A stretch of DNA of 64,000 nt from Terriglobia bacterium (lineage in GTDB: Bacteria > Acidobacteriota > Terriglobia > 20CM-2-55-15), in contig CAXWPJ010000012.1 in NCBI GenBank assembly GCA_963664115.2, forward strand, positions 480,001 to 544,000, read 5' to 3'. Under the pieces are notes generated by a model. That model did no database searches and had not been told where the DNA came from. It saw nothing but the letters and a program-made list of their open reading frames with translations. The translations under genes and the position numbers were made by a program. This document shows positions 15,002 to 37,975 of this stretch, piece by piece (positions within the stretch are counted from its first letter, which is position 1; each line of letters starts with the position of its first letter).

Positions 15002-15144
15002 GAGTTTCGTGCCGGATTCCATATTCAAAGTGTGCAATTAAGGACGCTATGTAAATTTAGCTAATCGGTACAAGAGGTGAGGGTTATTGGCAAGAAAATC
15101 GTCGATGACAGACCTGCGACCATTTCTCAAGGTCCGACAAGATG
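15002..15144 (-). repeat. Kinase 5' stub (MESGTKL, ATG at 15022), leader, and left part of the palindromic site
   Basis: gagtttcgtgccggattccat...gggttattggcaagaaaa...ttctcaaggtccgacaagatg. Confidence 0.8.
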
Positions 15145-16392
15145 ATTCAGATCAACCGGTCGATGCAACACCTGCGTTTAATGTCTCTGCCGGATTAGCG
15201 AAGTCCAGCGTCTCACGAGGTCGCCCGTTGAGCTTCCTTGCGATCATATCCAAATGCTCCTGTGAGTGAACCGACAAGTCCGTACCTTTAGGGAATACTG
15301 TCGGAGCAAACCGTTCGTGTTTTCGTTCGAACCCCGTTGCCAGGGACTCCTCGGATCGCAAAAGTAAACGGCAATGTCGGTGGCCAGAGTGAACCGTTTG
15401 TGATTGGCCATTTCCAATCCGCGATCCCAGGTCAGTGTTTTATAGAGTTCGGTCGGGAGTTTGTCTGCGTGTTCGATCAGCGCGTTGATGACGGTTTCGG
15501 TTTCCTTATTCGGAACCTTCACCCGCATCACGTACCGGGAGAAACGTTCGACCAATGTCGCAATGTAGGTGTTGTTCGAACCCGCTATGAGATCCCCTTC
15601 CCAGTGTCCGGGGACCGCGCGATCTTCAACCGAAGCCGGGCGCTCACGGATCGATATCAGATCCGGGATCTGCCCGCCACCCCGGCCTTTGCGACTGGCA
15701 TGCCGGGACCGGCGAATCGTGCGTTTGGTCCGTAGATGCTGTGTCAGTTCTTTCTTCAGAGCCCCGCGGGCCTGGATGAAAAGGCTGCGATAGATCGTTT
15801 CGTGTGACACGTAAAGTGACTCGTCGTCTGGATATTCGCGTTTCAGCCAACCCGCAATCTGTCGCGGTGCCCAATCCTCCCGGAGCTTCTCTTCGACGAT
15901 CCCGCGTAAGCTGGGATAGCGGATCAGTCGACATCTCTTCGGGCGGTGAGCCCGTTCCCATGCGCGTTCATCCGCCTCCAACGCTCGATAGTTATCATAG
16001 CCCCCATTGCGACCGATCTCCCGACTGACTGTGGAGGGTGCACGCGACAGCGAGGCGGCAATTGAACGGATCGATCCCTTGGCGGCAATGCCTCGGGAAA
16101 TCTCTTCACGCTCGGCGAGGGTCAGCGCCCGCTTAGAGCGGCATCGTGTCCTGGGACAGATTCCACCATACGGTGCGATCTGACCATAAACCGAAGAGCC
16201 CTCCTTTCCGAACACACGTCCGATCGCTTTTAGACTCTCTCCCCGCTGCCAGCGAATCCACACCTCGTCTATATCGGCGAGTGTGTAGCCTCGCCGCACC
16301 CGGTCTTTACTCTGTTTCTTCCGTCGTTTCTTACGCATACACTCCACCTCCTCCTTTTAGGTACAGTGTTGCATCGATCTGTTGAGACCACC
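15145..16392 (-). mobile_element. IS30-family element inserted in the centre of the palindromic site
   Basis: Imperfect IRs attcagatcaaccggtcgatgcaacac / ggtggtctcaacagatcgatgcaacac; 2-bp TG duplication. Confidence 0.9.
15152..16347 (-). pseudogene. IS30 transposase, frameshifted near 15295
   Basis: [32 protein letters not shown]-terminal LNGRPR..L in another frame. Confidence 0.9.
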
Positions 16393-16500
16393 TGATTTGT
16401 CGGAACTTGAACTCGAAAATCACGGGACCGGCACCCGTTCCTTCAGTTCTTCAATCAAATTCAGGACGATGTTGATTTGGGGTGTCGTTGGATCAGCAAA
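16393..16500 (-). repeat. Right part of the palindromic site plus kinase 3' stub
   Basis: tgatttgtcggaacttgaactcgaaaa; the stub encodes PQINIVLNLIEELKERVPVP*. Confidence 0.85.
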
Positions 16501-16553
16501 TATGCAAGCCGTGTTAGGATGCATTGAACGAAAACAAAGTTTCGGAGAAGACG

Positions 16554-17084
16554 ATGCACCACGTTTTTCTGTTGATTGCCGCTTTGGTGATCGCTGCTTC
16601 GCCCGCAAAGGGCGCAGCCCAATGGCAGGAATATGTTTATCCAGAAGACCGCTTCGCGATTCAGTTTCAATCCGAGCCGAGCCTACGGACCGCCCCTTAC
16701 GAAACGACGATCACTTCGGACCTCTCGGCAAAAGTCTACTCGCTCGAATTCGAGAACATTCTGTTCGAAGCGACGGTGGTCGAACTCGACGGCCTGATAG
16801 AAAACGGCGCAAACTTCGTTAGCGAAGTAGCTTACAATCTTCAGCGCGCGGGCGATGTCATCTCCAACGATTTTCCGCGCGTGGGCTTTCAGGGGAACCC
16901 GACCTTTGGGATGACCATTGTGGTAGACACCGAAGACGGGCGGCGGATTCGTTCATCCTCCTACGTTGCGAATGGCAGGTTCTACAAGATAGACGCGATT
17001 GTGCTCCCTGCGCGCGGCGACAAAGATCAGGCCGTGCCGTCTCGCTTCGATCAAACGCTGCGATTTGACGTCGAGCGTCCTTAG
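16554..17084 (+). CDS. Secreted hypothetical protein
   Basis: Signal peptide; W..Y..PEDRF.I.F..EP motif shared with 28241-28897. Confidence 0.7.
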   Translation: MHHVFLLIAALVIAASPAKGAAQWQEYVYPEDRFAIQFQSEPSLRTAPYETTITSDLSAKVYSLEFENILFEATVVELDGLIENGANFVSEVAYNLQRAGDVISNDFPRVGFQGNPTFGMTIVVDTEDGRRIRSSSYVANGRFYKIDAIVLPARGDKDQAVPSRFDQTLRFDVERP

Positions 17085-17476
17085 CCGCAACCACGGTTTG
17101 AGCATACTTCGCGCCCATCGGGGAGCGTCGCACTCATGAGCTGCCCGCCGCGCGAGCCGTCCCTCATCGGGCGAAACCCCACGGTAATTTCTGTGCCTGG
17201 CTGGAAATCATCCCGGCTCCAGCCCAGTCGCGCCAATTGAATGATGCTTCCGCCCTCGAACGCCCATGTCGTCACGTTGCCATTCTCGTCGGTGAAGTCG
17301 ACATGCAGCCAGGCATGCGGATTGATCCACTCGAATTCGTTTACCTTTCCCGTTTGCAAGGTCAGTTGAGTTTGGTCGAATAGTCGGGTCGAATGATGCG
17401 CAAGAACGGGGAATGTAAGCAAAAGAATACAAGCGATGGCGCCAATGGCGGTGCGACGATATGTTTCCATATTCAT
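17081..17476 (-). CDS. DUF6152-like secreted protein
   Basis: AHHS...GKVNEFEWINPH motif. Confidence 0.85.
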   Translation of the reverse strand: MNMETYRRTAIGAIACILLLTFPVLAHHSTRLFDQTQLTLQTGKVNEFEWINPHAWLHVDFTDENGNVTTWAFEGGSIIQLARLGWSRDDFQPGTEITVGFRPMRDGSRGGQLMSATLPDGREVCSNRGCG

Positions 17477-17978
17477 TCCTCCAAAGCTAATTCATACTAT
17501 CTCGAACCGTAAGTTTTTGCGAATCTGTTGCGCTGATTGGCGACGGAATGACTTCCGTCTTCCTCTGGTCGCACAAATAAAGGCCAAACCGCAACTAACC
17601 TGTTGGAACCCAAACTCAATGATCAAACTTATTTGAGCGAGTGATAAAACTTGCGATGGAAGGCAACATGGTGGCAGTGAAAGGACTCTTGAACGTATGG
17701 ATGGCAGCGTTGAGAACACTGTCGAGCAGATTTTCCGGCTTGTCATATGACAGGTAGCGAACGACTCCCGGGCTAAGGTGCCATTTCGGCCATACCCTAC
17801 GCCGAAGCCAGCCAATGCCCGGGACTGAACCCTCTCGAAATCCAGCGATTTCGCGGAAAACTGACAGGCCATCAGTGAATTCAAGCGATTTGATCTTTGT
17901 GGAATCAATCATTAACAGGTTGCGCCGTCGTCGCGCCATGCAAAAGTGAACTCAGGAGGAAAGAAGGAAGCAGTTGCT

Positions 17979-18013
17979 TTATGGAACCGGCACCCGTTCC
18001 TTCAGTTCTTCAA
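17979..18013 (-). repeat. Isolated kinase 3' stub (EELKERVPVP*)
   Basis: ttatggaaccggcacccgttccttcagttcttcaa. Confidence 0.8.
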
Positions 18014-36535: not shown

Positions 36536-36556
36536 ATCATGTTCACGGTTGAAGGC

Positions 36557-37168
36557 TCAGAGCCCTTTCGTCATTCGATAGAACTTCAATCCCGGTATAG
36601 CCAATCTCTTCGGCCACTGCGACTCGACGTTCATCCCGCGGCGCTCGTAGAATCGGCAAGCTCCCGCATTCCTAGCTGAAACGTCGAGGGATAGTCGAGT
36701 CGATCCGCTCGCACGAGCCCGATCTTCAACGAAGTCCATCAAGACGGAGCCGACGCCATCGCCGCGAAGTTCCTTATCAACAGCGATGGCTTGGAGGTAG
36801 AAATCGCCATCGGCGATTGAATCGACAATCCGCATGATTGGAGCAAACAGTATCTCTACGGTCCTCATTTGTAGATTGAATCTTCCGGCAGCCCGCTTCA
36901 GGGGTTGGCGCGAAGAACGGCGATGCTGCTCCGCGGTGTACACGCAGACTGTTCCCACGATGACGTCGTCACGTTCTGCGAAAGTCACATTTTGGTAGGA
37001 GAGGTCGTGGTCGGGCTGGGCGAACGCCGTGGCGACTATTTGCTCGGCGCGGCGACCGAGCCAAAAACGAAAGAATCCCTCGGCTGCTTGGTCAAGGTAG
37101 CGAGCAAATGCCAGACCTTCATCGAACGTGGGTTTGGCGGCCCTTAAGACTATCGAATGCCGATCCAT
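36557..37168 (-). CDS. GNAT N-acetyltransferase
   Basis: IAVDKELRGDGVGSVLM; N.GA.RFYERRG. Confidence 0.9.
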   Translation of the reverse strand: MDRHSIVLRAAKPTFDEGLAFARYLDQAAEGFFRFWLGRRAEQIVATAFAQPDHDLSYQNVTFAERDDVIVGTVCVYTAEQHRRSSRQPLKRAAGRFNLQMRTVEILFAPIMRIVDSIADGDFYLQAIAVDKELRGDGVGSVLMDFVEDRARASGSTRLSLDVSARNAGACRFYERRGMNVESQWPKRLAIPGLKFYRMTKGL

Positions 37169-37212
37169 ATCGTCCTTCTACGCCGAACATGGTAGTAGGC
37201 CGTGCATCCAAT

Positions 37213-37298
37213 TCTCAACGTCCGAGAAGATGATTTATCAGGACTTGACCTCGAAAATCAGGGAACAGGCCCTCGTTCTTTCGGTTCCTCGAACCAGT
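37213..37298 (-). repeat. Palindromic site (core 37218-37245) plus kinase 3' stub
   Basis: acgtccgagaagatgatttatcaggacttgacctcgaaaatcagggaacagg. Confidence 0.9.
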
Positions 37299-37300
37299 GT

Positions 37301-37611
37301 TTATTTAGGGCGCGTTCTGAATCGAGAGGCGGCTTGGTTCAGGGAGTCGTGTAGTTCTTCCCAAGCTTTCTGCAGGCCTGGTTTCAGATCGTCCCAAGCT
37401 TCAGCAGTCGTTTCTTTCAATTCGCGCAACTTGTACTGCGCGGCTTCCAGTTTCCTGCGAAGTTTACTGATCTGCGCTTTAACTTCGGACGTAATGCTTC
37501 CGCTTCTGTCCCGGCAGCGGTTTCCAGTTTCCTGCGAAGTTTACTGATCTGCGCTCGCAACTCGTTGAGTCGATCTTCCACGTTCGGCCCGTCAGATCGT
37601 TGGTCAGTCAT
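37301..37611 (-). pseudogene. Small coiled-coil protein frameshifted by a ~33-bp internal duplication
   Basis: ...KLRELKETTAEAWDDLKPGLQKAWEEL..; ttccagtttcctgcgaagtttactgatctgcgct occurs twice. Confidence 0.6.
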
Positions 37612-37767
37612 CTAACCTAAGCATAATATGGAATGTCCTTGCTGTTTCCGTATCCCGAGTCAAAGACGGTACGGCAACGACTATACAACCCAGTGAAATT
37701 ACTACGGACCTACTCAGAGCCATTGGAAAGAATCATCAGGGGTTGAACGGGCTCAGTTAGTGGCAAC

Positions 37768-37975
37768 CTACGGCACCGGCACCCGCTCTTTCAGTTCTTC
37801 AAACCAGTTCAGGACGATGTTGCTTCGGTCTGGCTCTGCCTCGCTGCCTTTGAGCGCGGCATGCTGAACCATCACGAATCGTTGACCGTCGGCTGTCAAA
37901 TCGTAGACGGGAAACGGCGCCATATAGACTTCATTGCGGCCTGACTCGTCGGAGACATACGCCACCCAGTTGCCA
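37768..37975 (-). pseudogene. Kinase-TolB/PD40 C-terminal fragment with internal deletion
   Basis: AYVSDESGRNEVY..PFP / YDLTADGQRFVMV...NIVLNWFEELKERVPVP*. Confidence 0.85.

Follow-up and report, generated by a model that had tools for sequence, protein, structure and literature searches.

Gene blocks bordered by a dyad site and by kinase gene ends in a Terriglobia genome

How do unrelated genes come to lie between the severed ends of a signaling gene? The question is raised by a 64,000-nt stretch of DNA from an uncultured Terriglobia bacterium of the Acidobacteriota (the window; positions 480001–544000 of contig C12, GenBank CAXWPJ010000012.1), in which 5' and 3' fragments (stubs) of a Ser/Thr kinase gene alternate with a varied cargo. 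The source genome, G000 (4.89 Mb, 12 contigs), and its congeners G001–G004 all belong to genus g1; a second genus bearing the same site is g4. Coordinates carrying a contig label refer to the source genome and all others to the window. The gene blocks prove to be bordered by a 34-base dyad site as well as by kinase ends, and they form a real mobile cassette system that spans two genera or more. Its site is new, and the way from a kinase gene to a cargo cassette can be seen in the sequence. We hold with moderate confidence that a tyrosine recombinase moves the blocks, by excision and insertion at the site, and that the kinase ends act as anchors and promoters.

Kinase stubs and their parent genes

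Five 5' stubs starting MESG lie on the minus strand at 15022, 22451, 24194, 29630 and 36395 and match an intact kinase over 21, up to 36, 71, 206 and ~405 nt, respectively. An initial annotation had pointed to these and to a catalytic fragment at 27199–27768, and all six are present; the fragment is a Pkinase domain that begins at about codon 92 of the intact gene. Of the approximately 11 C-terminal stubs that the annotation counted, ten align clearly with an intact kinase (13687, 16420, 17979, 22368, 24343, 27892, 29914, 30731, 37258 and 37768), and the eleventh, at 22625, is short and degenerate. It was right that the window holds no intact kinase; four are found elsewhere in the genome. The unit order it described, in which site, promoter and 5' stub come before the cargo and a 3' stub and second site after it, applies to three 5' stubs of the window (15022, with flanking sites that are split or degenerate, 24194 and 29630) and fails for the other two: the stub at 22451 runs straight into a 3' stub, with no cargo in between, and that at 36395 meets the next site without any 3' stub.

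Misassembly can be ruled out, as stub–cargo joins are spanned in contigs of several studies and in a related strain, and occur in congener genomes too. Contigs from four studies (one run may be the source sample) span 24342–27778, 27876–29351, 29918–30744 and 21392–22399, and the related strain, ~97%–98% identical, spans the unit at 13020–15122. The assembly, whose validation the annotation had called for, is thus sound.

The four intact kinase-propeller genes (878–903 codons; C5:8574, C9:945169, C10:251145 and C12:23257) match NCBIfam Ser/Thr kinase and TolB propeller models below the cut-off. Three further copies exist: one has a single stop (C5:155791), another is missing the N terminus, and the third runs off the end of a contig. 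Immediately behind the stop codon, two of the four intact genes carry a full site and the other two a partly deleted one; the 14-6-14 dyad is intact behind three of the genes and shortened behind the fourth. Before the start codon, a full site lies 74 or 101 nt upstream in two genes, and a site truncated by an insertion sequence (IS) precedes one. Full-length paralogues flanked by the same site, which the annotation had suggested looking for, do therefore exist. The kinase family is widespread, with a match at E ≤ 1e-100 in 33 of 41 genomes. Kinase paralogues are noted in Solibacter by PMC3174227 (cited, like the other papers below, for part of its text), and neither stubs nor sites are mentioned in that part. 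In genus g10 (L142 and L143), intact kinase-propeller genes stand head-to-tail with REP-like palindromes between them instead of the dyad site.

The features of the array follow, with type A and type B denoting the two spacer classes of the site and J a repeat described in the next section.

6873..9440, plus: degenerate site, then IS91-family element with tyrosine recombinase (7026–7907) and Y2 transposase (7904–9088)
13659..13745, minus: kinase 3' stub and degenerate half-site; left border of the array, arginase gene next
13910..14668, minus: cargo, haem-oxygenase-like/TenA-like redox protein
15002..15022, minus: 21-nt kinase 5' stub behind a kinase leader
15126..16410, minus: type-A site (half-sites 15126–15146 and 16393–16410), its spacer split by an element that we take, from its HTH_38 and rve domains, to be of the IS30 family; transposase 15244–16347
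16420..16480, minus: kinase 3' stub
16524..17476, both strands: cargo, unknown protein (plus) and DUF6152 (minus)
17979..18015, minus: kinase 3' stub without a site
18138..19997, minus: presumably an IS1380-type element (DDE_Tnp_1_4); the related strain has the empty allele
20101..22350, minus: cargo, amidohydrolase and dienelactone hydrolase, with a partial J repeat (21389–21427) between them
22368..22451, minus: empty unit, 5' stub fused to 3' stub
22492..22591, minus: type-A site (22551–22591) and sigma70-like kinase promoter (22492–22521)
22625..24194, minus: full unit with 5' stub (24124–24194), metallo-beta-lactamase-fold cargo (22854–23927) and degenerate 3' stub (22625)
24236..24335, minus: type-A site (24295–24335) and promoter (24236–24265)
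24343..24715, minus: long frameshifted 3' stub, propeller domain; upper limit judged from the translation
24914..27202, plus: cargo, DUF5916/CBM9-like protein, antisense to the kinase pieces
27199..27768, minus: internal kinase catalytic fragment; meets the inter-site spacer at an 11-nt microhomology
27845..27945, minus: type-A site (27845–27885) with 3' stub from 27892
28241..29306, plus: cargo, unknown protein and DUF6152
29322..29424, minus: J repeat
29425..29760, minus: 206-nt 5' stub, promoter (29676–29705) and inverted type-B site (29720–29760)
29867..29990, minus: type-A site (29867–29907) and 3' stub; the inverted B site is 147 nt away
30170..30583, minus: cargo, DUF6152
30684..30800, minus: type-A site (30684–30724) and 3' stub
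31027..33695, plus: cargo, dienelactone hydrolase, unknown secreted partner and DUF6152
34039..34621, minus: stub-less cassette, glyoxalase-family gene (34141–34509) between two type-A sites
34887..34914, plus: dif-like sequence with near-canonical XerD arm; far end of the J-cargo block
35307..35971, both strands: cargo, HbpS-like haem-binding protein (plus), then J repeat (35869–35971, minus)
35972..36536, minus: 5' stub (~140 codons), leader and type-A site (36496–36536; 34-bp core 36500–36533, spacer 36514–36519)
36537..37251, minus: site-to-site cassette, GNAT acetyltransferase (36557–37168) and type-A site (37211–37251)
37258..37965, minus: two 3' stubs (37258 and the longer 37768–37965) around a small gene

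The dyad site and the blocks it borders

The core of the site is a 34-base palindrome of 14-6-14 bp, with an invariant 6-bp spacer that falls into two classes. A weight matrix finds 179 matches at ≥14 bits (163 at ≥25) and none in the block-shuffled genome; the ~160 copies are grouped into 42 clusters that together cover 402 kb, or ~8% of the genome. Type A (131 copies) is found after stop codons and between modules, and neighboring A sites point in the same direction in 91 of 96 cases and in opposite directions in 5. Type B (20 main copies, 27 including variants) is inverted; 19 of the 27 precede a kinase start by 74–90 nt, and 11 of the 27 are 57–58 or 147 nt from an inverted A site. Covariation between the arms is absent, with 58 pairings at the variable position versus 64 expected under independence; such independent variation points to a site bound as a double strand, not a folded one. 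In keeping with this, an Rfam scan of 26 kb returned one chance-level match, and no compensatory pairing was seen in the site.

Several candidate identities for the site were rejected. It is not the chromosomal dif, as a separate canonical dif exists in each of the seven genomes checked. That of the host is a single sequence at C2:108145, which by eye agrees with the site at ~8 of 11 positions on the XerC side and ~6 of 11 on the XerD side and offers no match to four conserved outer bases of both site arms. No R or L boxes of integron attC sites were seen by eye in the fixed 14-6-14 core, and an IntI-like open reading frame (C9:714590–715873, L080; judged from its translation) is 195 kb from the nearest site. 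Anchoring at tRNA genes was set aside, with 13 of 53 tRNA/tmRNA genes within 10 kb of a site, close to what the area covered predicts on a rough estimate. That an A-plus-B hairpin serves as a CTX-type attP is no more than an idea: the pair folds (z ~−3), but the inverted repeat itself accounts for the folding.

Some side observations concern the site. A shared, island-end-like flank follows it in five of nine metagenome matches (L267, L268, L270, L272 and L273), with a tRNA-like fragment in four; ARAGORN detects no whole tRNA in the five metagenome loci with the tRNA-like flank. Type-A spacers, or positions adjoining them, host IS30-family elements in at least two genomes (window 15126–16410; G004 L087, L095 and L099). 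Related dyads with other spacers lie beside kinases or recombinase genes (G007 L136; G030 L047; G004 L083 and L155; G000 C2:322773 and C5:32502), which suggests a wider site family.

Outside the source genome the site occurs in all four congeners (76, 33, 9 and 2 matches) and two g4 genomes, and was not found in the other 34 genomes searched. A looser pattern brought in another two g4 genomes, where true copies have this same anatomy. It also gave four isolated single matches, of which two were inspected and proved not to be sites. Nine metagenome contigs carry the site. Viral contigs gave no exact site, and the B pattern gave no metagenome match.

The movement of blocks is visible in the sequence shared between sites. 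At least 150 nt of flank are shared by 33 site pairs. Twenty type-A pairs have a single flank in common, the upstream one in 10 and the downstream one in the other 10, and identity stops 0–2 nt from the site in 18 of these 20 pairs, which are not independent of one another. Whole blocks are duplicated site to site (C2:264298–265587 and C6:43764–45053, 99.3%; C10:252472–252861 and C6:39774–40163, 95.9%), and the GNAT cassette of the window has a site-to-site copy on C2 (91%). Beyond the site the flanks of duplicated modules are unrelated, and inspection by eye showed no target duplications. Between species, window blocks beginning at a site recur in G002 (30685–32164, 97%; 24299–24818, 96%) and in G001 (36496–37298, 90%); for a core comparison, the xerD region is 77%–87% identical to that of the congeners. 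In some duplicates the divergence sets in precisely at the start codon of the kinase, and several of the blocks stop where an IS stops.

Many stub junctions fall at IS ends or at a third repeat. The J repeat (~105 nt, with a fixed 5' end and a variable 3' end; 32 copies in the genome) abuts truncated kinases. It holds a word close to the host XerD arm with an inverted partner before it, a CTX-attP-like layout, and the block from J to the dif-like site (34843–35971) is 96%–97% identical in G001 and G004. J was rejected as an attC or stable hairpin: the coding strand folds with z-scores of −1.2 to −1.9 and the opposite strand with −3.4, and there are no attC boxes.

Origin of the stubs and agents of movement

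Kinase pieces are strongly biased toward the termini of the gene. In a genome count with 30-column tiles of a profile made from 18 full-length kinases, the first 150 columns gave 71, 39, 22, 16 and 18 matches, the interior 6–24 and the last tile 114. Tiles 2–5 are better conserved than tile 1, yet have fewer matches, so the bias that the annotation would have needed holds even within equally conserved parts of the kinase domain. A motif scan finds 143 3' ends, 62 of them with a site within 15 nt. The 88 start-motif matches comprise 6 in intact or near-intact genes, 26 dropped as unvalidated (the window stub at 15022 among them) and 56 stubs of 24–800 nt without a fixed breakpoint; 3' stubs thus outnumber 5' stubs, 143 versus 56. 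The upstream flank of 99 of 136 type-A sites is kinase-derived (69 with a coding stub, 30 with only a 3' untranslated piece), 31 A sites lead into a kinase start, and a kinase leader is matched by 25 of the 107 others.

The ends also behave differently from the interior in intact genes. Among nine intact kinases less than 70% identical, synonymous identity is 0.50 in the first 60 codons and 0.64 in the last 20, compared to 0.34–0.41 in the interior and 0.31–0.38 expected from codon usage. Since it is raised only at the DNA ends, these ends probably recombine among paralogues, which supports the annotation's alternative suggestion of a recombination reservoir for the kinases. The 3' stubs differ from their consensus at 22% of third codon positions versus 6% and 4% of the others, and therefore derive from many kinase alleles with little decay; the scan admitted at most 7 mismatches, which favors such a picture, and nearly all of the 143 are non-coding stubs. 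Erosion nevertheless goes on: in the related strain a 454-nt deletion at 3 nt of microhomology removes a kinase start, both sites and one stub.

Orientation and leaders hint at expression of the cargo. Behind the 56 5' stubs, the next gene has the orientation of the stub in 37 cases and the opposite one in 14 (p = 0.002), and 5 stubs have no gene within 700 nt; sigma70-like promoters are predicted in three leaders of the window; and the metallo-beta-lactamase-fold cargo is joined directly to the kinase leader in three congeners.

These results can be arranged as a series of steps. Intact kinase-propeller genes would be the starting point, being present as site-leader-gene-site units. Blocks between directly repeated sites of the same spacer appear copied and reordered within the genome and between species, probably by a site-specific enzyme. 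The first 60 and last 20 codons, homogenized as described, would recombine among paralogues and swap sensor domains and leaders. One-sided homologous events, along with deletions at IS ends and microhomologies, may then replace the kinase interior with unrelated DNA. Products that keep a site would stay mobile, which would favor the survival of the pieces closest to it, with 3' ends lasting more often than 5' ends, and a retained leader could drive the cargo. The best reading of the stubs is hence as survivors near a selected site, reused as anchors, and not as an obligatory pair of termini.

Three kinds of enzyme are candidates. The source genome has 27 tyrosine-recombinase matches, and among the loci fetched (all matches of G003, nearly all of G002, part of those of G001 and G004) only XerC and XerD (C9:863207 and C2:150455 in the source genome) were found in all five g1 genomes. 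Our leading candidate, held tentatively, is a mobile Xer-like recombinase, such as a 316-amino acid protein (C5:52192) or one that was not assembled. The 316-amino acid gene stands between two high-scoring B sites, at distances of 76 and 90 nt from the open reading frame, and a broken copy is found in G001; a near-perfect 11-6-11 dyad lies at a similar upstream distance in one of 11 homologue loci examined, and viral sequences gave one distantly related locus. A recombinase linked to IS91 elements (C12:569262), of a group seen in four g1 genomes, is almost as probable a candidate. Host XerC/XerD are a less probable choice, kept in view because integrative mobile elements exploiting Xer (IMEX) can have divergent XerD arms (PMC5357621). 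An altered XerD specificity was rejected, as the recognition-helix motif also occurs in genera without the site (among the 24 loci listed, out of 29).

A number of observations weigh against the model set out above. None of the recombinases accompanies the sites in all carriers: the 316-amino acid protein was not found in G002–G004, G003 has 54 site matches and no match to an IS91 (Y2) transposase, and G017 has 50 IS91 matches and one site. The XerD arm is not conserved. Just 10 of 85 A-to-A modules retain both stubs. Arm polymorphisms follow the adjacent flank weakly (on average 0.9 versus 2.7 differences in the right arm, 1.6 versus 2.3 in the left), shared blocks at 20032–21392, 32166–33796 and 34843–36396 end far from any site, and at least two duplicated blocks diverge inside a 3' stub and not in the spacer; given such ends and exchanges, homologous recombination alone could explain part of the pattern. 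Finally, the joints listed for eight runs (contigs only) include no site-to-site empty allele or circle; most joints of this kind are a product of the repeats and are uninformative as to activity.

It is conceivable, but in our view improbable, that no site-specific enzyme is involved. The dyad would then be the site of a regulator or nucleoid protein, repeats of 40–100 nt made of site plus kinase end would be RecA substrates, and the stubs would stem from illegitimate recombination and deletion. Such an account is favored by the homogenized termini of intact kinases, the exchanges inside stubs, the B site abutting the promoter and the want of a co-occurring recombinase, and homology-facilitated illegitimate recombination has been proposed for type VI secretion system (T6SS) and Rhs arrays (PMC5361080). 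By the same source, however, these events are several orders rarer than ordinary recombination. Two fixed, incompatible and oppositely oriented spacer classes, with Xer-like inner bases at a 6-bp spacer, are unexpected of an operator, and stub-less cassettes also move from site to site.

We consider it quite improbable that rolling-circle IS91-recombinase elements run the array, with the sites as their targets and one-ended or read-through transposition making stubs of variable length. The B spacer is indeed the precise insertion point of one IS91-recombinase family, whose copies have a short repeat at either side (five of five distinct left ends and five of five right ends, in G000 and G002). 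All six copies of the window family lie within ~270 nt of a site or remnant, and related families in G001 and G048 are often, by eye, inside other repeats of these arrays. The element thus at least targets the site. Against a larger role, IS91 is missing from G003, the left ends of the 19 copies of a related family examined in G001 all lack a site arm, most stubs are not beside IS91 ends, and type A, the main class, is not an insertion target. That the site is an intrinsic part of the IS91-recombinase ends was rejected, with no site beside the G001, G004 or G007 copies. Insertions of these families in B spacers or other repeats are seen at L013, L058, L061, L063 and L274. The six copies of the window element (6940–9440) are 99%–100% identical, with a 149-nt tandem duplication at the downstream end.

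Least probable is a strict Pack-type vehicle, in which every module goes back to one kinase cassette that lost its interior to cargo in one double-ended exchange, with both ends required in cis. In its favor, 31 of the 56 5' stubs are followed on the same strand by a 3' stub at a distance of up to 6 kb, ahead of any further A site, and the metallo-beta-lactamase-fold gene is joined to the kinase leader in three congeners and to a 3' stub and site in two, but the 85 A-to-A modules of <8 kb (modules starting at B not counted) have both stubs in 10 cases, the 3' stub only in 33, the 5' only in 7 and neither scored stub in 35, so that the two ends are independent (Fisher p = 0.59), 3' stubs are in large excess, and stub lengths show no fixed breakpoint. 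The initial annotation's picture of kept termini around a swapped interior hence stands as far as the end bias goes, and fails where it equates one module with one hollowed kinase. Its comparison with Pack-type gene capture is an analogy only, because the kept ends are those of a host gene beside a recombination-type site and not transposon termini.

A broader proposal, which we regard as speculative and rather doubtful, is that a signaling gene gave rise to a self-assembling capture platform. Kinase cassettes would supply a promoter, two homology arms and a dedicated site; the arms would take up whatever genes lie nearby and exchange sensor domains among intact kinases; and the products would be circulated across Terriglobia species by a mobile tyrosine recombinase, perhaps the one that IS91 elements carry. 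If true, this would be a third cassette class beside integrons and dif modules, and would provide a substrate for the so far unexplained IS91-linked recombinases.

Known systems and wider setting

The literature searched (mainly open access, main text without supplements) contains no description of the site or of kinase-end cassettes. The array combines integron-like polarity with the site geometry of dif modules but departs from each in a defining trait. Like integrons and clusters of attC sites lacking integrases (CALINs), it is polarized and directly repeated, and its accessory genes are reshuffled and shared between species; unlike them, it has a site of fixed length without covariation or attC boxes, 42 dispersed clusters, cassettes with their own leader and genes in both orientations, and an IntI-like gene only at a distance. 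PMC3469429 lists Solibacter integrases, with kinases unmentioned in the relevant part of its text.

Acinetobacter dif modules and xrs share with the array 6-bp-centered dyads that bound accessory genes, multi-module islands, incompatible spacers and site-targeting IS elements, and chromosomal dif-module islands have been reported (PMC12907356). As described in PMC11705084, xrs are mostly inverted repeats around genes, with an XerD arm nearer dif, and form cointegrates without excision. Here, by contrast, A sites are overwhelmingly direct repeats with one spacer, the arms are 14 bp, and sites travel with kinase ends. The dif-module trait of inverted neighbors with different spacers is seen in A/B pairs, not in A/A pairs. 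Long imperfect inverted arms around a short asymmetric spacer, as seen here, are a trait of single-recombinase dyad systems of the XerH/XerS/Cre-like kind (PMC5357621).

The anchor-and-displace model of PMC5361080 offers another parallel. In Vibrio T6SS/Rhs displacement, too, incoming non-homologous DNA is anchored by a conserved end of a gene, and rows of gene fragments are left behind. Here, by contrast, the 5' and the 3' end of the gene both serve, cargo and anchor gene are unrelated, and a dedicated dyad site borders the units. IS91/ISCR elements are present in the array, one family in the type-B spacer, but modules are bounded by A sites and stubs, and the elements were not found in one site-rich congener and abound in site-poor genomes. 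Pack-MULE/Pack-TYPE elements and MITE-like derivatives keep their ends while the interior is lost or replaced by captured genes. In the array the ends belong to a host signaling gene, the dyad borders are direct repeats, and no terminal inverted repeats of a DDE transposon were identified.

How cassettes first arise is an open question for integrons and dif modules. With parent kinase, hollowed intermediates and finished cargo cassettes in one genome, cassette genesis can be traced here step by step. The array also suggests how acidobacterial kinase-propeller families diversify their sensor domains, and a short defined site with two orthogonal spacers and three candidate enzymes might yield a new recombinase-site pair.

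Two minor features complete the window. DUF6152 is the commonest cargo here, with five genes in 24 kb (9752–10159, 17081–17476, 28914–29306, 30170–30583 and 33201–33695), and a transposase-like unit is present in two copies with identical open reading frame patterns (53634–54976 and 61423–62765).

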